In this document: one piece after another, positions 3,486 to 32,688 of the stretch
Layout of the letters: the number at the start of each line of letters is the position of its first letter
How positions within the stretch are numbered: the stretch's first letter is position 1
DNA from: a virus
Direction: 5' to 3' (one strand)
DNA length: 32,750 nt
IMG/VR virus record: IMGVR_UViG_3300040770_000333
Coordinates: 1-32,750 of that record
The notes under the pieces: generated by a model
Seen by the model: only the letters and a program-made list of their open reading frames with translations
What the model was told of the DNA's origin: nothing
The model's database searches: none
Translations under genes and position numbers: made by a program

Positions 3486-4061
3486 ATGAAAATAGGTGTC
3501 TCAGAAAATAGTTTTAAAAAAGCAGCTACAAAGTTAGGATGTGAAGTCGCTATGATTAAAGCGGTTGATGCTAAGGAAAGTAAAGGTGGTGGCTTTTTAC
3601 CTAATGGTGATGTCAAGATTTTATTTGAACCTCACATATTTTGGAAGTATTTAAGGATGGCAGGAATTACTCCAGTGCTTTCAGATATCTGTTACCCTAG
3701 GTGGGGAACTAAACCTTATGGTAAGGAAAGTCAGCAACACACAAAGTTGCAAAGAGCTGTCCGTATAAGCAGGAATATAGCTTTGATGTCGGCCTCTTGG
3801 GGAAGGTTTCAAATAATGGGTTTTAATTTTAAAGCTTGTGGTTGTAAAAACATCCAAGAGTTTGTGAATAAAATGATGGAAAGCGAGGAATCTCAGTTGG
3901 AATTATTTGTGAACTACATACTTAGTTCCTATTTAGACGATGAACTTCAAGAATTAGATTTTCAAGGTTTTGGACTTGGTTATAATGGTCCTCTTTATTT
4001 TAAACACGAGTATCATACAAAATTAAAAAATCTGTATTTACAATTTAAAAAGGAAGCATAA
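3486..4061 (+). CDS. Endolysin, N-acetylmuramidase family (DUF3380/PF11860-like)
   Basis: 191 aa. The stretch GGGFLPNGDVKILFEPHIFWKYL ... WGRFQIMGFNFKACG resembles the DUF3380 muramidase family. Its position after the holin-like gene fits. Confidence 0.75.
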   Translation: MKIGVSENSFKKAATKLGCEVAMIKAVDAKESKGGGFLPNGDVKILFEPHIFWKYLRMAGITPVLSDICYPRWGTKPYGKESQQHTKLQRAVRISRNIALMSASWGRFQIMGFNFKACGCKNIQEFVNKMMESEESQLELFVNYILSSYLDDELQELDFQGFGLGYNGPLYFKHEYHTKLKNLYLQFKKEA

Positions 4062-4750
4062 TGAAACAGATAAATTTATTTAGTCAGTCGTTAAAGGAAG
4101 CAGCAAAATATATTGGCTGGGTTTTGTTGTTTATTTTTTTATGGTTTCGGGGTTGTTCTGGTGACACTCCAAAACCACAAACTACAAAAGTTACTGTTCC
4201 AGAAGTGAAAGCAAGTTTTGAAGCTAAGAAACCTAATCACGAGCTAATTGAAAAGGTCAAAAAAAGACCAACAAAATCACTAAGAAATAACTTTAATAAG
4301 AGTTCAAGTGTTGATTTTGTTGATAATGAAAAGACCAAAGAAAATGAAAAATTAAAATCTGATTTCGCAAAAGAAACAGATTCTTTAAAAAAAATAATAG
4401 CTTACAATAAAGCGGTTAAACTTAATAAATTCTCAACAAAGTTTGAAGATGAAAATTTATTACTAAACATCGATGGAATAGTACAAGGAGAAGTCCAAGA
4501 AGTTACGCCAAATTATACAATAAAGAAAAAGGAAGTATCTGTATCGGTTAAACAAAAAGAAACAGTATTTAGGGTATTAGCGGGTGGAGCTGTAGGAATT
4601 AACAAAGGCCTGAATCAAGCGGCGTATCAATTAGACCTTAATTTTCAAAATAGAAAAGGAAATATTATTTCTGCTGAATATTTAAACGTTGGAAATCAAG
4701 ATTTTGGAATGTTAGGCTATAAGCATTCTATAATTAATATTAAGAGGTAG
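4061..4750 (+). CDS. Membrane/lipoprotein-like protein, possible spanin-type lysis accessory
   Basis: 229 aa with a TAATG overlap with the endolysin. Hydrophobic N-terminus ending in FRGCSGD (a possible but atypical lipobox). The middle is Lys/Glu-rich. Confidence 0.45.
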   Translation: MKQINLFSQSLKEAAKYIGWVLLFIFLWFRGCSGDTPKPQTTKVTVPEVKASFEAKKPNHELIEKVKKRPTKSLRNNFNKSSSVDFVDNEKTKENEKLKSDFAKETDSLKKIIAYNKAVKLNKFSTKFEDENLLLNIDGIVQGEVQEVTPNYTIKKKEVSVSVKQKETVFRVLAGGAVGINKGLNQAAYQLDLNFQNRKGNIISAEYLNVGNQDFGMLGYKHSIINIKR

Positions 4751-4814: not shown

Positions 4815-5050
4815 ATTGTCGGAATTATATCGGAATTTAATATTAATAAAAAAAGCGATAAACCTTTATATCATTGGGTTTATCGCTTTTTAATTGTGAC
4901 CACGGTGGTATTCACGAAGCCTAAATCAAATTAAATGCAATTAAACAAAAACATAGTAAAATTGAGTACTTAATCGGTTTTGTGTATGTTTTTATAAAAC
5001 TATATTTAAATGTATTTAATTAGTTGTCGGAATAATGTCGGAATTTAATT
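4815..5050. other. Candidate attP region with arm-type integrase binding repeats
   Basis: Two 26-nt direct repeats match at 24/26 positions: TTGTCGGAATTATATCGGAATTTAAT (4816-4841) and TTGTCGGAATAATGTCGGAATTTAAT (5024-5049). Each holds two TCGGAAT units 11 bp apart. They flank a roughly 180-bp non-coding core immediately upstream of int. The core contains ACCAC-G-GTGGT (4899-4909). Confidence 0.5.
4847..4892. terminator. Strong bidirectional hairpin terminator inside the att region
   Basis: Perfect 11-bp stem AGCGATAAACC (4854-4864) / GGTTTATCGCT (4877-4887), flanked by an A-run upstream and a T-run downstream. Confidence 0.6.
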
Positions 5051-5077
5051 TACCTTTACATTCCTAAAATTAAAAAT

Positions 5078-6268
5078 ATGGCAACTATTAAATTTTTATT
5101 AATCAGCGAGCAAAACCCATCTTATATTTATTTGCGATTTATCGATGGCAGAAATTTTGATTTTAAGGTAAAAACTAATTTCATAATAAACCCGATAGAC
5201 TGGAGCCAAGCAAAACAAAAACCCAAAAATTTAAAGAAAGTCGATTTTAAGAATCTCGATACCGAGCTTCAGAACTTAAAAACAAATTTACTACAACATT
5301 TTAATACTTCGACTGAAACTATAAATTTATTATGGTTAAAGAATTTCATTAACCCAAAAAATGAAAGTAATGCCCCAGATGAATTAATATTGTATTTTGA
5401 TTATTATTTAAAACTTCGAAAAAACGAACTCACTTTGGCGACCACTAAAAAAATAAATGTGGTTAAAAATAAATTGATCCAAATTGAAAAGTTCGCGAAC
5501 AAAAAATATAAAATCAAAGATGTTAATTTAGTTTTCAAAAAAGAATTTGAGGACTGGAACAAATCAAAAGGGTATGCGGACAATACTATTTCAGAAAATC
5601 TAAAAGAAATAAAATCTATTTGCCGGCACGCTGGAAAACACGGCGTGCCCATAAGTAATTTACTAAGTGATATTAGCACCACGCAAACTAAAGCGATCAG
5701 CATTTTTTTAACCTTTGAAGAAATCGAAAAAATACAAAATGCAGCATTAGAATTTGATTACTTACAAAATGCTAGGGACTGGCTTATTATCTCATGTTAC
5801 ACAGCGCAACGAGTGTCTGATTTTATGCGTTTCAATACCGAAATGATACGAGAGCAAGACGGAAATAAATTAATTGAATTTACGCAGCTTAAAACGGGCA
5901 AGATTATGACATTGCCATTACACCCAAAGGTTATTGAGGTCCTGAACAAACGCAATGGAGATTTCCCACACGCCATTTCCAGCCAGAAATACAACGACTA
6001 CATAAAAAAAGTATGTGAGATCGCAGAAATTAATGATACGGTGTACGGTGGAAAAATGGAAAAGAACCGAAAATTATTTAAGCAGTATAAAAAACATGAA
6101 TTGGTTACTTCGCACATTGGCCGCCGATCCTTTGCCACTAACTTTTACGGAAAAATACCTACTGCATTACTCATGGGTGCAACTGGCCATACAACCGAAG
6201 CAATGTTTCTTGTTTACATAGGAAAAAGCAACACCGATAAAGCTGTTGAATTGAGTAAGTATTTTTAG
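5078..6268 (+). CDS. int: Tyrosine recombinase / phage integrase (Bacteroidetes type with an N-terminal arm-binding domain)
   Basis: 396 aa. Catalytic signature is visible: TAQRVSDF (Arg I), SHIGRRSFAT (H-x-x-R), GHTTEAMFLVYIG (His ... Tyr). It is adjacent to the att-like repeats. Confidence 0.9.
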   Translation: MATIKFLLISEQNPSYIYLRFIDGRNFDFKVKTNFIINPIDWSQAKQKPKNLKKVDFKNLDTELQNLKTNLLQHFNTSTETINLLWLKNFINPKNESNAPDELILYFDYYLKLRKNELTLATTKKINVVKNKLIQIEKFANKKYKIKDVNLVFKKEFEDWNKSKGYADNTISENLKEIKSICRHAGKHGVPISNLLSDISTTQTKAISIFLTFEEIEKIQNAALEFDYLQNARDWLIISCYTAQRVSDFMRFNTEMIREQDGNKLIEFTQLKTGKIMTLPLHPKVIEVLNKRNGDFPHAISSQKYNDYIKKVCEIAEINDTVYGGKMEKNRKLFKQYKKHELVTSHIGRRSFATNFYGKIPTALLMGATGHTTEAMFLVYIGKSNTDKAVELSKYF

Positions 6269-6769: not shown

Positions 6770-7405
6770 TTAGAATAAATGGCTTGACGCCTGAACTTTG
6801 AATATTGCAGAAATACTGCTTTTTTTTATTTGTTGTGGTGGGAACTCCTCTTTTTTGCTGTCAGTAGGTTTACTAATTAATGTAAAATACTCGTCAGTAT
6901 CTCCCTTTGTAATCACTTTTATCATTCTAAAATTATCATTAGTTACAATAGCGTAAATCTCTCCAAAAGGGAAAAACTCCTGCCAGCTATTTATTTTTAT
7001 CAATCCTATTGCGTCTCCGTGACATATAACTTTTGCCATTGATTGACCCGATGCCCTTACCACATAATCACAACCTTTAAAAAACGGATGGCTAATATAG
7101 GAATCTGGTCTAATTTGATTGTTGTTTTCAATTACCAAAAAGCTTGCTGTAAAATCTATATCATAATATGGAACGCCTTTGTAATATTCCGCACCTGGTT
7201 CCGTAATTAAATTATTTGAATGATTAGTTTTATCAAGTTCGAAATCAAACATTTTTTCGATTTCTTTAATCTGTAAATTACTTAAACTTTTTCGATTAAC
7301 AGCCATTCTAAAAGCCTCTCCTTCCATACCAATAATAGATCCCAAGTCTTTATTGCTAAGCTTTTTTGTTGTCTTATGTAGCGCTAGTAATTTGTAAAAA
7401 TCCAT
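6770..7405 (-). CDS. cI/LexA-like repressor (HTH plus S24 peptidase domain)
   Basis: S24 motifs are present: VVRASGQSMAKV (nucleophilic Ser in G-x-S-M) and FRMIKVITKG (general-base Lys). The N-terminal HTH-like region is LSNKDLGSIIGMEGEAFRMAV. The start is set at the internal Met (MDFYKLL, 7405). The ORF-track extension to 7543 runs through the promoter/operator region. Confidence 0.75.
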   Translation of the reverse strand: MDFYKLLALHKTTKKLSNKDLGSIIGMEGEAFRMAVNRKSLSNLQIKEIEKMFDFELDKTNHSNNLITEPGAEYYKGVPYYDIDFTASFLVIENNNQIRPDSYISHPFFKGCDYVVRASGQSMAKVICHGDAIGLIKINSWQEFFPFGEIYAIVTNDNFRMIKVITKGDTDEYFTLISKPTDSKKEEFPPQQIKKSSISAIFKVQASSHLF

Positions 7406-7757
7406 ATCGATTTTATTTGTAATGATTATAAATAAACCATAATTCGAAATTTTGTTTGATTTATTTGTTTGAAATCGAACAAGTGTTTGTATATTTGCCT
7501 TGTACAAATGCAGATACGCAAATGTAGCGAAGTTCTTTGACATATAGAAAACAAAAAAACTACAAAAATTAAAGCCTGTGGGTTAAAAAATTCCCTATTT
7601 GAAATATGGCTGAAAAATAAAAAACGCTGTTGGATTTGAAATATGAATCTGCTTTCAATGCAACAACGGCACTAAATTTAATTTACGGACGCCGAATGTA
7701 CGACTAAAGATTATATAAAACGCTTAGAATCAGTATAAATAAAAAACAAACAAAAAA
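7406..7757. promoter_or_regulatory. Divergent genetic-switch region (repressor versus cro-like gene) with repeated operator-like motifs
   Basis: A perfect 12-bp direct repeat ATTTGAAATATG occurs at 7597-7608 and 7634-7645, with a related TTTGAAAT near 7469. -7-box-like TAnnTTTG motifs occur on both strands: TATATTTG near 7490 on +, and TACATTTG on - (complement near 7524-7531). Confidence 0.4.
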
Positions 7758-13308: not shown

Positions 13309-14178
13309 ATGGCTAGACCTAAAAAAGAAAATGCGGAATATTTTTCACATGATTCCGGGATGAGGAATGATCCTAAGATAAAAGCTTTGAGAAGAAGGTT
13401 TTCAATTGGTTATTCAGTTTATAACATGTTCTTGGAGTATTTGACCGATTGCAGTTTTTTTGAATTTGAAATGAATGATTTGCAATATGAAATTTTAGCT
13501 GGAGACTTTGATGTTGAAACTGAAACTTTAATTCAAATTTTGGATTACTGTGTTAAAATAGGGCTATTAGAACGACAAAATAATGTCTTTTTTTCGAATG
13601 GATTAAAGAAAAGACTTCAAACAGTTTTGGATAAGAGAAACAACTCAAAAAACAAGTTTCTGAATCAGAAACCAACCGAAAAAGCAAAAGAAGTACATGA
13701 AAGTGTAGTTTCTGTGACAGAAACTACACAAAGTAAAGTAAAGGAAAGTAAAGTAAAGGAAAGTATAGTTCTTTTAAAAAAAGAACCAAAAGAGGCGATT
13801 ATTGAGGTTGTAAAAATACAATATCCATTTTTTACAGAAAATTTTAAAACGCAATGGCAGCTTTGGAAAGTTTATAAATCAAAGGAATTTAATTTTAAAT
13901 ACAAATCAATTGAAAGTGAACAAGCTGCGCTTACAGAATTATCAAATCTTTCTCAAAAAAGCGAAAAAAAAGCTATTGAAATTATAAACCAGTCAATGGC
14001 AAAGGGCTGGAAAGGATTTTTTGAATTAAAAAATAATACTCAAAATGGAAAACAATTTAATAATTCAGGACCAAGTACAAATACGGGGTACAAACCTGCC
14101 ACAGTTGATCGAGAAAGACTTATTCAAGAGCTTACCTATGATGCTGCAAATGGAAATATCCCAGGTCAATATCAATAA
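13309..14178 (+). CDS. Replication-initiation-associated protein with a DUF4373 (Lin1244/Lin1753-like) N-terminal domain
   Basis: The N-terminus MARPKKENAEYFSHDSGMRNDPKIKALRRRFSIGYSVYNMFLEYL matches the characteristic YFxHD ... DxKI ... G pattern of DUF4373 phage replication proteins. It contains a KVKES x2 mini-repeat. Confidence 0.6.
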   Translation: MARPKKENAEYFSHDSGMRNDPKIKALRRRFSIGYSVYNMFLEYLTDCSFFEFEMNDLQYEILAGDFDVETETLIQILDYCVKIGLLERQNNVFFSNGLKKRLQTVLDKRNNSKNKFLNQKPTEKAKEVHESVVSVTETTQSKVKESKVKESIVLLKKEPKEAIIEVVKIQYPFFTENFKTQWQLWKVYKSKEFNFKYKSIESEQAALTELSNLSQKSEKKAIEIINQSMAKGWKGFFELKNNTQNGKQFNNSGPSTNTGYKPATVDRERLIQELTYDAANGNIPGQYQ

Positions 14179-15275: not shown

Positions 15276-15302
15276 AAATTTTAAACCTAAAAACTAATAG
15301 TA

Positions 15303-15473
15303 ATGAGTAAAAATAACCATTGTAACGTGTGCGGTTTTCCAGAAGAATCCTGCTTACACCAGCTTTTTAAACAGGCTAAAATAAGAGATACAAGGCTAAA
15401 CTGCATGTTGTGGTTCTCAATAGGTTTTGTTGCTGCAATAGGAATTATATTGATTGAAATATTGTGGGATTAA
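15303..15473 (+). CDS. Small CxxC-containing membrane protein (56 aa, below the ORF-track cutoff)
   Basis: Translates as MSKNNHCNVCGFPEESCLHQLFKQAKIRDTRLNCMLWFSIGFVAAIGIILIEILWD, with one TM helix. Its stop codon TAA is part of the GATTAAC box of the first attC-like site. Confidence 0.4.
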   Translation: MSKNNHCNVCGFPEESCLHQLFKQAKIRDTRLNCMLWFSIGFVAAIGIILIEILWD

Positions 15474-15597
15474 CGGACGTTGTCGCCACTTAGCTAGGTT
15501 GTGGAGTTATGAAAACGATTACTTTCTGCTTAATGTAAAAGTTTTTTAGAAACGGAAATTCCACTAAAACCGCAATCTTGCTAAATGGCTGTTGGCG
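15468..15597 (+). repeat. attC-like site 1 (130 nt imperfect hairpin)
   Basis: AAC box GATTAAC (15468-15474). 20-nt arm GCCACTTAGCTAGGTTGTGG (15485-15504) pairs with CCGCAATCTTGCTAAATGGC (15570-15589) and has a C.A mismatch at stem position 5. One nt (T) follows, then GTT box GTTGGCG (15591-15597). Confidence 0.55.
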
Positions 15598-15610
15598 GTA
15601 GGTTTTATTT

Positions 15611-15913
15611 TTATATAGATTCAAAAATCGCATCGTTTATTTTTTTTCGGCTTTCTGGGTTTATTAAATAGGATTGTAATAAGTTATATAAATCCATATT
15701 TCCAGAACTGCCACCACTAATATTTAAAGTGTCACAAAAAACAGTTACCGCACTTCTTATGTCATTTGTATCGATTGTTTGAGTTTGTGACCCACTTATT
15801 TGTTCTTTGACTTTCTGTAATCTCGGTTTTCCGTCAAATTGATATTGGCTAAACTGAGATAAAAAGTCAATTAACTTTTCGTGTCGAATTTGATGTTCAT
15901 TTATACGTTCCAT
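15611..15913 (-). CDS. Cassette-1 hypothetical protein (minus strand)
   Basis: 100-aa ORF with no competing plus-strand ORF in an AT-rich background. It is divergent from the mini P-loop gene, with only 18 nt between their start codons. Confidence 0.5.
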   Translation of the reverse strand: MERINEHQIRHEKLIDFLSQFSQYQFDGKPRLQKVKEQISGSQTQTIDTNDIRSAVTVFCDTLNISGGSSGNMDLYNLLQSYLINPESRKKINDAIFESI

Positions 15914-15931
15914 TATTTTAAATTATTTATT

Positions 15932-16180
15932 ATGAAAAAATCAGTTTTATTATTTGGGCTTAGAGCCTCAGGAAAAACAACTAAACTTAGAGAAATTCTC
16001 TCTGAAACTCCAACCTCTTTTGTGCTAGATGGAGCAATATCTGTTAAAGAAATATCTGCTCTTTATTCGCAAGCAATTAATGCTAATTCATTTTGTATTG
16101 TAGCAACTTTATTGGATGAGTTAGATTTTCCAAGTCATGTATTGTCAAATTTTGAGCTTATACGTTGTGACTTTCGCTAA
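15932..16180 (+). CDS. Cassette-1 miniature P-loop NTPase-like protein (82 aa)
   Basis: The Met at 15932 gives MKKSVLLFGLRASGKTTKL (Walker A GxxxxGKT), followed later by FCIVATLLDE (Walker-B-like hhhhDE). The ORF track starts further upstream at 15881. Confidence 0.5.
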   Translation: MKKSVLLFGLRASGKTTKLREILSETPTSFVLDGAISVKEISALYSQAINANSFCIVATLLDELDFPSHVLSNFELIRCDFR

Positions 16181-16186
16181 ACTTAC

Positions 16187-16319
16187 TGCCAACGGTCGCA
16201 GGCTTGCAGAAGTGGCAAAAAAGTAAGCCTTAATTTTCGGTTAAAGACCGAGCCACAAAGACACAAAAACAACTTTAAATTAAACCTGAACTTGCCATTT
16301 TTGCAAACCTGTGTTAGCA
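16187..16319 (+). repeat. attC-like site 2 (133 nt imperfect hairpin)
   Basis: TGCCAAC (16187-16193), 5-nt spacer GGTCG, then arm CAGGCTTGCAGAAGTGGCAA (16199-16218) pairing with TTGCCATTTTTGCAAACCTG (16292-16311). The stem has a C.A mismatch at position 5 and two G.T pairs. One T follows, then GTTAGCA (16313-16319). Confidence 0.6.
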
Positions 16320-16346
16320 TTAGTGCGGTTCTTAAAAATAAAAATT

Positions 16347-16808
16347 ATGAGCTTTTTAAAAGAAACTTTAGAAACTGTGCAATGTGATAATTGCAAAACT
16401 ACCTACCAAGATGAAAGTACTGGTTACGCTTTTTGGCTTGATAAAAACGATGCTTGGGAATGTTCTAATGAAGATGGTTGGACAGAAAATAGTGAAAAAC
16501 ATTATTGTCCAAAATGCCACAATTACAACGATGAAGATGAATTGATAATAAATACAGAAAGAACAAAAATAGACAAAAGTGTTTTTCCTGAACATTTATT
16601 GGATAATATAACTGCTGAACCTTTTGATTATTTTTTAGGAGTTGATACTTATGATAAAAAAGCATTGGCTTTATGTCTATCAAGAAAAACAGAAAAAGGA
16701 GTTGAAATTTTATTATCAAGGGTTTCACAAGACGAAGTTTCTTTTGAAAATGAAGTAAAATTATTATCAGAATTATTTAATGCAAACGTCTTAAGAACGC
16801 AATCGTAG
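16347..16808 (+). CDS. Cassette-2 protein with an N-terminal zinc-ribbon-like CxxC ... CxxC motif
   Basis: The ATG at 16347 gives MSFLKETLETVQCDNCKT ... HYCPKCHN. The ORF-track start at 16311 is a GTG that lies inside the GTT box of attC-like site 2. Confidence 0.55.
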   Translation: MSFLKETLETVQCDNCKTTYQDESTGYAFWLDKNDAWECSNEDGWTENSEKHYCPKCHNYNDEDELIINTERTKIDKSVFPEHLLDNITAEPFDYFLGVDTYDKKALALCLSRKTEKGVEILLSRVSQDEVSFENEVKLLSELFNANVLRTQS

Positions 16809-16814
16809 CATTGA

Positions 16815-16947
16815 TGCTAACGTTTCGCAGCCTTGCTTTGTACCGACCAAGTACAGACTATTTTTCGGATGAACACCAGTAACAACAAACACAAAATAAT
16901 ACCAACCAAAGCCAAGTAAAAGGTATAGAGCAAGACTGCTGTTATGC
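16815..16947 (+). repeat. attC-like site 3 (133 nt imperfect hairpin)
   Basis: TGCTAAC (16815-16821), 5-nt spacer GTTTC, then arm GCAGCCTTGCTTTGTACC (16827-16844) pairing with GGTATAGAGCAAGACTGC (16922-16939). The stem has a C.A mismatch at position 5. One T follows, then GTTATGC (16941-16947). Its central region shares TTTTCGG and ACAAA-ACACAAAA blocks with site 2. Confidence 0.6.
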
Positions 16948-16972
16948 GTTCGGCTTTTTAAAACTGAATATT

Positions 16973-17218
16973 ATGTATAACTTATCAATTAATCCTGAAA
17001 AATGGGTGAAAATGTCAGATTTAGAACTAGAAATGAATAAACCATTTTGGTTTAAAAAACCCGATGGTAAAATAGTAATGGGCGCACCATATTCAAATGG
17101 ATATAGTTCTGGAATAGCGGAGGTTTATTTAGCAGAAGATGGCTTAAAAATAAAAACTAATACGTTTCTTATTTTACGAGATAGTCTAATTCAAGAGGTT
17201 CTCGAAGCTGACGCATAA
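16973..17218 (+). CDS. Cassette-3 hypothetical protein
   Basis: 81-aa ORF. Its last codons and stop (GACGCATAA-C) form the AAC box that complements the GTTATGCGT at the cassette start. Confidence 0.5.
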   Translation: MYNLSINPEKWVKMSDLELEMNKPFWFKKPDGKIVMGAPYSNGYSSGIAEVYLAEDGLKIKTNTFLILRDSLIQEVLEADA

Positions 17219-17283
17219 CTTCTTTATATACGTAACCATTGTGGTAATAAACAAATAAAACCAAAGCATATGATTACCACAAT
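17211..17283 (+). repeat. Terminal AAC half-site plus a perfect 11-bp hairpin spanning the next start codon
   Basis: ACGCATAAC (17211-17219) is followed by ATTGTGGTAAT (17238-17248) / ATTACCACAAT (17273-17283). The ATG of the next ORF (17270) lies in the loop. No clear GTT box follows at the spacing seen in sites 1-3. Confidence 0.4.
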
Positions 17284-17530
17284 AGAATTTAAACAAGGTT
17301 TCATTTATAAGGGGGTAAGGCACGCTTGGAAGAAAGGAAAATTATACAGATTACCATTCAAAAGAAACAAAAGAACTTATGGATTAAGAGAAATACCGAT
17401 GTATGTATTTAAAACAACCGCAGTTTATAATATCCAAAGAGATAAAATAACATTTTTAAAACTGAAACAAAGAACGGAATGTGTTACTTGGGAAGTAGAA
17501 ATTTTAATTGATGATGAATATCCATTTTAA
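17270..17530 (+). CDS. Hypothetical small basic protein
   Basis: 86-aa ORF and the last gene before the early/late terminator. Confidence 0.45.
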   Translation: MITTIEFKQGFIYKGVRHAWKKGKLYRLPFKRNKRTYGLREIPMYVFKTTAVYNIQRDKITFLKLKQRTECVTWEVEILIDDEYPF

Positions 17531-32137: not shown

Positions 32138-32688
32138 TGGCACAGCAACATATAAATTTTAGCCAGCCTAATGATGGTCTGGGCGACACGTTAAGAGAAT
32201 CGCAGATTAAAGCCGAAAGCAATTTCAATGAATTGTACTCAAACAAAGTTGACAAGGTTTTAGGTCAAGGATTATCTGATACAAATTTCACACAATTAGA
32301 AAAAGATAAGCTTGAAGGATTACAAGAAGGCGGCCAATTGCAAACCGATTGGGATCAAGGCGACAACACCCAAAAAGATTATCTAAAAAATAAGCCCGAA
32401 AATGTTTCTGAATTTTTCAATGATTCAGAATATGTCGTAGATGTTCCCACCGCTGGAATTTTTGCACGTTCATCTGGGGAGTGGATAGACTTAGCAACTG
32501 CAAACCCTTTCAATACTTTCAAACCTATTCAAAAAGGATTTGGCAACGTATTACAAACACCTGAACCTGGAGATATTTATTGCGGTTGGAGCAACGACGG
32601 TACAATACGATATACAGAGGCATTATATATTTCTGGTCCATTAAACGATTCAGATAATTTCACACCATTAGTACAAACAGAAATTTAA
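32137..32688 (+). CDS. Tail-fibre-associated protein
   Basis: 183 aa. NKVDKVLGQGLSDTNFTQLEKDKLEGL resembles the K-x-D-K ... G-L-S-x-N-D/F-T ... E-K-x-K-L motif recurrent in phage tail fibre N-termini. It lies directly upstream of the fibre gene that starts at 32696/1. Confidence 0.5.
   Translation: MAQQHINFSQPNDGLGDTLRESQIKAESNFNELYSNKVDKVLGQGLSDTNFTQLEKDKLEGLQEGGQLQTDWDQGDNTQKDYLKNKPENVSEFFNDSEYVVDVPTAGIFARSSGEWIDLATANPFNTFKPIQKGFGNVLQTPEPGDIYCGWSNDGTIRYTEALYISGPLNDSDNFTPLVQTEI

Follow-up and report, generated by a model that had tools for sequence, protein, structure and literature searches.

The stretch of DNA analysed here, positions 1 to 32,750 of the IMG/VR virus record IMGVR_UViG_3300040770_000333 (32,750 nucleotides (nt), henceforth the window), contains three hairpin sites that occupy intergenic gaps in a run of small genes at 15.4-17.2 kb and resemble the attC recombination sites of integrons. 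The window (33% G+C) corresponds to a Flavobacterium-type phage or prophage, which is considered temperate because it encodes a large tyrosine integrase with Phage_int_SAM_5 and Phage_integrase domains (5078-6268) and, divergently from it, a CI/LexA-like repressor (6770-7543, - strand); these genes are followed by replication genes, small early genes and structural genes. The three sites lie on the + strand and exhibit a common layout, comprising nnnYAAC, G with a 4-nt bulge, a stem of 18-20 bp, a loop of ~75 nt, the return stem, a single T and GTTRnnn.

Site 1, the first of the array, spans positions 15466-15602. Its AAC (15472-15474) ends an R''-like box, GGGATTAAC (15466-15474), which is part of a backbone open reading frame (ORF, 15303-15473), and is followed by a 10-nt spacer (15475-15484), the left arm (15485-15504), the loop (15505-15569), the right arm (15570-15589), the T (15590) and the GTT (15591-15593) that opens the R' box GTTGGCGGTAGG (15591-15602). 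Site 2 (16182-16324) begins with the R'' box CTTACTGCCAAC (16182-16193), whose AAC (16191-16193) is followed by the spacer GGTCG, i.e. G plus 4 nt (16194-16198), the left and right arms (16199-16218 and 16292-16311), T (16312), GTT (16313-16315) and the R' box GTTAGCATTAGT (16313-16324). Site 3 (16810-16952) is built in the same way from R'' ATTGATGCTAAC (16810-16821) with AAC at 16819-16821, the spacer GTTTC, again G plus 4 nt (16822-16826), arms at 16827-16844 and 16922-16939, T (16940), GTT (16941-16943) and R' GTTATGCGTTCG (16941-16952). The R'' boxes of sites 2 and 3 are at the same time the ends of the units referred to below as cassettes A and B, with the crossover of site 2 placed after 16193. 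The R boxes fit RYYYAAC and GTTRRRY; all three sites, like the whole of the family described below, contain YAAC and GTTR. An earlier sequence-only reading of the window had reported the sequences and coordinates of these arms, a C opposite an A at the fifth stem position (15489/15585, 16203/16307 and 16831/16935), and spacers of 5 and 1 nt in sites 2 and 3 and of 10 and 1 nt in site 1; on re-reading of the sequence all of this proved correct, and a G.T wobble at stem position 14, which had been overlooked, was found in all three sites.

Folding of the single-stranded DNA recovered the long stems of sites 1-3 with z = -1.3, -2.7 and +0.4, respectively, and the thermodynamic stability of the sites alone is unremarkable. 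A generic scan for AAC-stem-GTT gave 17 matches in the window and 4-7 in each shuffled sequence, with similar scores; since it was unspecific, it was replaced by a scan anchored on AACG and TGTT and by covariance models. No Rfam family matched at the gathering score anywhere in the window, and a tRNA search of the window was negative.

In a blastn search, site 2 gave an 84% match in 16 genomes of Muminvirus (Flavobacterium phages), which show no other relationship with the window in their DNA. A degenerate search pattern derived from the Muminvirus and window sites matched at least 120 stretches of viral contigs in IMG/VR, and the anchored stem scan of those loci yielded 243 sites, compared with 1 in shuffled sequence, with lengths peaking at 118 and 124-127 nt. 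The 5/1 spacer, in which the sequence-only reading had seen a distinct geometry, is the norm of this family, as it is present in 220 of the 237 unique sites and is also the modal class in a looser scan.

The covariation alignment comprised 68 sites, i.e. the three of the window and 65 others that do not match the search pattern, a choice that avoids circularity. Compensatory double changes were found at 18 of the 19 long-stem pairs counted, the C.A position included. For the same alignment RNAalifold predicted a 5-bp R helix (T-A, A-T, A-T, C-G, G.T) in addition to the long stem, with compensatory changes at 17 of 23 pairs. Paired cells amount to 93.9%, compared with 65.5% in shuffles, and double-change cells to 407, compared with 108, neither value being reached in any of 500 shuffles, while sliding the partners by 1-3 columns reduces pairing to 34-48% (a bias of these percentages is discussed below). 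The selection on structure postulated from the three window sites is thus borne out in the family. The C.A position, on the other hand, is common but not invariant: 43 of the 68 sites have it and the other 25 have a Watson-Crick pair there. The most conserved non-canonical pair is the G.T at stem position 14 (64 of 68 sites), and position 11 is G.T in ~40% of sites. The stem is gapless, with the C.A mismatch and the G.T wobble instead of bulged or extrahelical bases.

A covariance model (R2), trained on the 65 IMG/VR sites alone and on no window site, assigned 108.1 bits to site 2 (E 1e-23), 89.6 bits to site 3 (E 4e-19) and 50.3 bits to site 1 (E 4e-11 over 4 kb), all on the + strand; by these scores, the site architecture is highly significant. 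R2 found no further match elsewhere in the 32.7-kb window and gave no score on the opposite strand of sites 2 and 3. In Muminvirus it detected 14-17 sites per genome, every one on the coding strand. The G.T wobbles of the stem (positions 11, 12 and 14) and of the R helix (position 11) exist on the coding strand only and become C.A mismatches on the other strand, which, together with the strand-specific scores of the model, suggests a folded single strand as the substrate.

The extent of the mobile unit can be read from the Muminvirus genomes, whose leftward early region contains ~17 genes, many of them encoding DNA methyltransferases, with a site of this kind before nearly every gene. Four Muminvirus species, which are 99.6-100% identical in their aligned parts, are set apart by five events in which one to three genes have been inserted or replaced, and the breakpoints of all five fall exactly at ...YAAC/, 5' of the hairpin (a slash within a sequence marks the breakpoint), with only 4-8 nt of shared identity. 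For example, mumin has TTGCCACTAAC/GTTCTCGTGGC, where filifjonk has TTGCCACTAAC/GTTTCGCGGC...(1.58 kb)...TTGCTTATAAC/GTTCTCGTGGC. Four of the five events are located within the last three array positions, and in one genome an extra cassette has been inserted at the array end, ...CTTATAAC/TACAATATTACATG. The unit is therefore [G-spacer-hairpin-R'-gene-R''], with the crossover on the AAC (5') side, and the hairpin consequently precedes its own gene, opposite to the integron convention. In agreement with such a unit, the start codon of several methyltransferase cassettes lies in the hairpin loop, so that the right arm and R' are translated. That these sites bound mobile cassettes, and that a tyrosine recombinase adjoins many of the arrays (see below), supports the attC-like character proposed in the sequence-only reading. 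The Muminvirus phages and the variation in their methyltransferase genes were described by Nilsson et al. 2020 (PMC7077304), who did not report the repeats. Apparent Muminvirus 'half sites' with a left arm only were rejected, as their right arms are located further downstream, some of them in the annotated start of the next gene. One cassette, the one whose presence varies between Muminvirus species (positions 4190-4709 of the record of mumin6-1, L008, and 3714-4219 of filifjonk in reoriented coordinates), has a chimeric hairpin that combines a left arm of the GTGGCTTTAATACAGTTGCG type with a right arm of the GCAATTGCCACAAGATGC type and therefore cannot form the stem.

The 12-nt R' box reads GTTRnnnnnAGK and the 12-nt R'' box MTTnnnnnYAAC, and the latter is complementary to R' of the same cassette, matching it at 10-11 of 12 positions in 17 of 20 tabulated cassettes. 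Of 119 pairs of consecutive IMG/VR sites, 57 have an R' that matches the next R'' at no fewer than 7 of the 9 variable positions, a level reached by 2.1% of shuffled partners; the proportion rises to 33 of 38 in pairs separated by less than 400 nt. R'' and R' of one and the same site match at 3.52 of 9 positions, compared with 3.49 in shuffled partners. R-helix position 11 is G.T in 53 of 67 well-matched cassettes. Completion of the R box by the cassette's own end, which is the signature of a circular cassette, holds generally in these comparisons.

The window array consists of three such cassettes on the + strand. Cassette A (15475-16193) comprises hairpin 1, two ORFs (15611-15913, - strand, 100 amino acids (aa); 15932-16180, + strand, 82 aa, with a weak match to the P-loop family AAA_14) and its own R'', CTTACTGCCAAC, with which its R' GTTGGCGGTAGG forms 10 of 12 Watson-Crick pairs and 2 G.T pairs; the divergent arrangement of the small ORFs could represent a two-gene module with its own promoter. 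Cassette B (16194-16821) comprises hairpin 2 and an ORF (16347-16808, 153 aa) that contains CxxC pairs and has no Pfam match, and its R' GTTAGCATTAGT pairs with R'' ATTGATGCTAAC at 10 of 12 Watson-Crick positions and 2 wobbles. Cassette C (16822-17219) comprises hairpin 3 and an 81-aa ORF (16973-17218), and its R' GTTATGCGTTCG pairs with CTGACGCATAAC (17208-17219) over 9 contiguous positions. Except for one C.T in cassette C, all non-Watson-Crick R'/R'' positions in the three cassettes are G.T or T.G on the + strand. There is no hairpin beyond the last AAC (17219) of the window array; it is followed by the array-end sequence TTCTTTATATACGTAACC... (17220-17269, + strand), which is a 'class 2' array end (TnnTnnATATACGCA), and by a conserved small ORF (17270-17530), which is not a recombinase and is 49% identical to an ORF in another locus (L066). 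As the window encodes no recombinase of the array-associated family, its three cassettes form an orphan array, the equivalent of the integrase-less integron arrays known as 'CALINs'. Hairpin modules of this array recur in other loci and its cargo does not: the segment of cassette B consisting of the hairpin, R' and ~25 nt is 77-96% identical to modules in more than 15 IMG/VR loci with unrelated cargo, and the sole match of window cargo genes to cassettes elsewhere is a weak one of ORF B (32% over 59 aa). The phage most closely related to that of the window (L003, with 83% aa identity) has neither cassettes nor covariance-model matches, and its homology ends at window position 15280, which precludes an empty-site comparison for the window array. 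Further upstream, a palindrome cluster on AGTTTCTG...CAGAAACT (13655-13729), including a perfect 13-nt inverted repeat (13703-13715 and 13717-13729), is present within the ORF 13309-14178 and looks like iteron- or origin-type repeats in a replication-protein gene.

Clustering of the ORFs of the pattern-selected loci identified a small tyrosine recombinase in 9 loci, and in all nine its gene is co-oriented with the array and directly follows the last cassette (...YAAC/TAYTATATGT...(~53 nt)...ATG). When the best 80 viral loci (at least 80 exist) were fetched in a protein-only search, without the site pattern, 65 of the 67 with a usable upstream region were found to have aTtnnnnaTAAC/TAcTATATgTa, mostly 52-53 nt before the recombinase start codon; the attI-like array end takes the form YAAC/TACTATATGTA. 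Among the 46 loci whose upstream sequence extends to at least 2 kb, 33 have between one and eight strict sites upstream on the same strand, while sites downstream or on the opposite strand were found in none of the 66 recombinase loci scanned. Five contigs (L134, L137, L138, L186 and L188) start exactly at the junction of array and recombinase leader, (C)TAAC/TACTATATG, which suggests that heterogeneity of the population upstream of it breaks assemblies. The array end of the window, TTCTTTATATACG, belongs to the class TnnTnnATATACGCA, found also in L061, L097, L022 and L070 and followed by the conserved small ORF, and a third class is TAnnnGCTAACCnCTATAAAnGTATTAC.

The recombinase has 266-294 aa, Pfam domains Phage_int_SAM_4 and Phage_integrase, and the catalytic residues R..K..HxxR..H..Y; one example is encoded at 4888-5691 of locus L133 (IMGVR_UViG_3300012347_000507). 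Its best NCBIfam match is the XerA/integron-integrase model, under the cut-off, and with the integron integrase model TIGR02249 it scores 141 bits, compared with a cut-off of 265, in a match split in two pieces. The best solved structure is XerA (4a8e, E 6e-57). VchIntIA (2a3v) was aligned in two blocks, with 64 IntI residues (180-243) opposite 21 of the phage enzyme, which therefore lacks the IntI-specific insertion. In a set of 185,579 bacterial and archaeal species representatives, close homologues are present, among the matches listed, in at least five bacterial contigs, mostly Flavobacterium metagenome-assembled genomes, including a 293-kb Flavobacterium contig with array, junction and recombinase contiguous in its middle. 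In L135, L136 and L138 the small recombinase is immediately followed by a large integrase homologous to that of the window (5078-6268) and is therefore not the lysogeny integrase there. Cellulophaga phage Ingeline and the Polaribacter phages Freya and Leef encode distant homologues (32-36% identity), which are annotated as 'integrase'. Directly before this small integrase gene the ten Freya isolates differ from one another by 0-4 kb, and in Freya_10 (L231, 1-4147) the variable region closes with ...TTGTTGCTAAC/, ~55 nt before the start codon.

The cassettes usually carry one gene each. The commonest cargo are N6/N4 DNA methyltransferases, found in 53 loci, and C5 methyltransferases and further methyltransferase types are frequent as well; cargo of this kind suggests exchangeable anti-restriction genes. 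At 93 of 228 sites (41%) the next ORF of 50 aa or more begins within the loop and continues across the right arm and R' in either of two frames, and at the remaining sites the start codon is located at a median of 36 nt after GTT. The same DNA element would thereby provide unrelated proteins with a leader peptide; on the minus strand of L008, for example, sites 32208-32331 and 35231-35348 encode N-terminal peptides such as ..HFAKPVL.. and ..QPFCQTRVSGS... A promoter in each loop was not supported, as the Bacteroidetes -7 motif TAnnTTTG occurs in 11 loops, compared with 9 shuffled ones, and the conserved TTG of the left arm, considered as a -33 element, would be spaced by ~24 nt rather than ~19; in the absence of such enrichment the cassettes are probably expressed by read-through transcription. 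An inversion switch, with inverted repeats flanking each gene, was also rejected, as the genes keep one orientation relative to the hairpins.

Given the site family with its covariation, the cassette boundaries, the pairing of R' with R'' across the gene and the physical linkage of the recombinase, we consider it probable that the three sites function as attC-like recombination sites, within a cassette system that resembles an integron and is carried by phages. Such a system could operate as follows. The cassette would begin at the G behind one YAAC, end with the next YAAC and consist of the 4-nt bulge, the ~120-nt hairpin, R', usually one gene, and R''. It would be excised as a circle, in which R'' pairs with R' at the base of the hairpin, so that a continuous series of R helix, bulge and L helix is rebuilt, the substrate being likely the folded coding strand. 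The tyrosine recombinase would cut after AAC, one base pair from the bulge, and the cassette would be inserted at the downstream array end, at the attI-like YAAC/TAYTATATGT, which in many phages stands before the gene of the small XerA/IntI-like recombinase. This recombinase is the candidate enzyme, and its substrate would be single-stranded.

Several points weigh against this interpretation. Site 1 deviates from the standard spacer; the covariance model places its crossover box at a degenerate GG-ACG, at the normal distance, in preference to the AAC 10 nt away, so that in place of the '10-nt spacer' there may be a 6-nt spacer behind a degenerate GAC box. The associated recombinase family is absent from the window and from Muminvirus, hence any activity there would be in trans or historical, and of at least three classes of array-end sequence the recombinase is linked to one only. 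Some cassettes contain several genes or a chimeric, non-pairing hairpin. The gene starts in the loop at 41% of sites, translated through the right arm, imply that the element is also under coding or RNA-level constraints. The excised cassette circles are something we infer rather than observe. Finally, the sites used for covariation were gathered by a stem-based scan, an ascertainment that inflates the pairing percentages; the compensatory pattern, the fixed non-canonical positions and the shuffle control of the loci are independent of it.

The same hairpins might instead act as RNA elements of a polycistronic early transcript (processing sites, terminator-like stabilisers or translational gates), with gene shuffling as a by-product of homologous recombination, as has been proposed for the promoter early stem-loops (PeSLs) of T4-type phages, which flank genes of the hyperplastic region. 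The two resemble each other in being conserved intergenic stem-loop repeats around small, variably present phage genes. The coding strand folds better owing to G.U-type wobbles, every site is co-oriented with the genes, the next start codon lies within the loop at 93 of 228 sites, and hairpins of different cassettes are similar enough (77-96%) to permit homologous exchange. However, exchange of that kind should break within the long conserved hairpin and not at YAAC/ with 4-8 nt of identity, and the pairing of R' with an R'' several hundred nt away, rather than with the adjacent one, has no obvious rationale in RNA and is a requirement of a circular cassette. PeSL shuffling is attributed to homologous recombination between promoter-bearing repeats, whereas our elements have breakpoints at a fixed tetranucleotide, ends complementary across the gene, and no promoter motif enrichment, and are tightly linked, in a fixed direction, to a tyrosine recombinase, the junction sequence being conserved. 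With no Rfam match in the window either, we regard an RNA role of this kind as unlikely. Least probable of all, and to our minds very improbable, are non-autonomous hairpin transposable elements (palindrome-associated transposable elements (PATEs) of the IS200/IS605 type or miniature inverted-repeat transposable elements (MITEs)), inserted by an HUH transposase 3' of TAAC. They would account for the strand specificity of the structure and for insertion always directly 3' of a short YAAC beside a hairpin, but no HUH or TnpA-like family is associated with the arrays, where the recurrent neighbour is the tyrosine recombinase, and the units carry ordinary phage genes in tandem arrays, each unit with one hairpin and a complementary far end instead of two subterminal hairpins.

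Ordinary bacterial attC cassettes moved by a host IntI, i.e. a phage CALIN such as that of Polaribacter phage P12002L, are also improbable, even more so than an RNA role, despite the many respects in which the phage arrays resemble integrons. Both have tandem arrays of mostly single-gene cassettes; sites that are imperfect palindromes with R boxes of the RYYYAAC and GTTRRRY type and a crossover within the R box; an R box that is rebuilt only in the circle, R' fitting the R'' of its own cassette and not that of the neighbour; conserved non-canonical stem features with strand asymmetry; and a dedicated, simple tyrosine recombinase of the Xer/IntI branch, which in the phages lies beside what may be a distinct insertion site at the variable end of the array. 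As in the attC sites of Vibrio (VCRs), highly similar sites accompany unrelated cargo, and integrase-less arrays exist in both. In addition, Qi et al. 2023 (PMC9892861) reported attC calls of IntegronFinder and HattCI that flank methyltransferase genes in P12002L, one site of which is recombined by IntI1 in vivo. Nevertheless, in the phage arrays the hairpin precedes the gene, with the crossover on the AAC (R'') side of the coding strand, while in integrons the gene precedes attC and the crossover is in G/TT of R'. The spacer is a bulge of 4-5 nt on one side, opposite 0-1 nt on the other (5/1 as a rule), not a roughly symmetric unpaired one; the C.A mismatch and G.T wobble take the place of the extrahelical G and T; the R helix has 12-13 bp; and the sites, at ~125 nt, are long and vary little in length. 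The recombinase is encoded downstream of the array and in the same orientation, and the next gene often starts within the site. The enzyme itself lacks the IntI-specific insertion of ~35-45 residues in the catalytic domain, scores best as XerA-like, under the integron-integrase cut-offs, and has close relatives in at least five contigs of the bacterial and archaeal set, compared with at least 80 viral loci, among the matches listed. The carriers are phages of Flavobacteriia.

In Qi et al. 2023 (PMC9892861) the P12002L sites are regarded as canonical attC sites that came from bacteria, and their 'divergent directions' are pointed out. Like our arrays, that CALIN lies in a flavobacterial phage and has methyltransferases as cargo, and its attC-like hairpins follow, in general, the same design. 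Its sites (L132, ~31121-32924 and 39126-40948) represent a sister variant, in which the spacer is 6/0 and the boxes are ACAAC and GTTGT; the R2 model does not detect them. The study mentions neither a phage recombinase nor the AAC-side boundary, the R'/R'' rule or how large the family is. None of Bartlau 2021 (PMC8776804), Nilsson 2020 and Qi 2023 gives the family, the cassette boundaries, the R'/R'' rule or the linked recombinase. We found no account of this system in the literature, with Qi et al. 2023 the closest and most subscription journals outside our coverage, and the site family is apparently undescribed so far.

The conserved YAAC/TAcTATATgTa of 65 of 67 loci may correspond to attI, but the recombinase gene is downstream of it and co-oriented, and the array end of the window belongs to another class. 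Xer/dif recombination is characterized by a single double-stranded dif-type site of 28-30 bp, which is not what we find here despite the XerA-like sequence of the enzyme: the gene is phage-borne, stands at the end of arrays of several ~125-nt hairpins, and is rare in bacterial genomes among the matches listed. A parallel may be drawn with CTX-phi and the integrative mobile elements exploiting Xer (IMEX), where XerCD recombines an attP folded from single-stranded DNA: a Xer-type recombinase acts on a one-strand hairpin of the phage by single-strand exchange, as we infer for the present system. However, CTX-phi integrates its whole genome into the dif site of the host by means of host enzymes, whereas here a phage enzyme would move single-gene cassettes, both inside one phage genome and from one to another.

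Integrons have been regarded as a bacterial, and recently also archaeal, invention defined by IntI, and to our knowledge phages have been reported with occasional integron fragments only. In the interpretation best supported by the comparisons made above, the phage system is not an integron by its defining features, but would work like one. On balance, we are inclined to believe that phages of Flavobacteriia possess an integron analogue of their own, with an XerA-like recombinase devoid of the IntI insertion that captures single-gene cassettes, largely for methyltransferases and other counter-defence functions, and reshuffles them by way of ~125-nt hairpins of the coding strand, with reversed polarity and a dedicated attI-like site. 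Such an analogue would either have arisen independently of integrons or be related to the transition from Xer to IntI. If this is true, the strategy of mobilizing cassettes by folded hairpins has evolved or persisted outside the IntI clade, which bears on the origin of IntI from Xer, and present integron-finding tools under-detect and mis-orient such sites. The recombinase and its site could also constitute a compact, possibly orthogonal pair for genetic engineering. Plating efficiency of Flavobacterium phages has been linked to the presence or absence of such methyltransferase genes (Nilsson et al. 2020, PMC7077304), and the system, if it works as proposed, would explain the rapid change of methyltransferase repertoire, and hence of host range, in flavobacterial phages.

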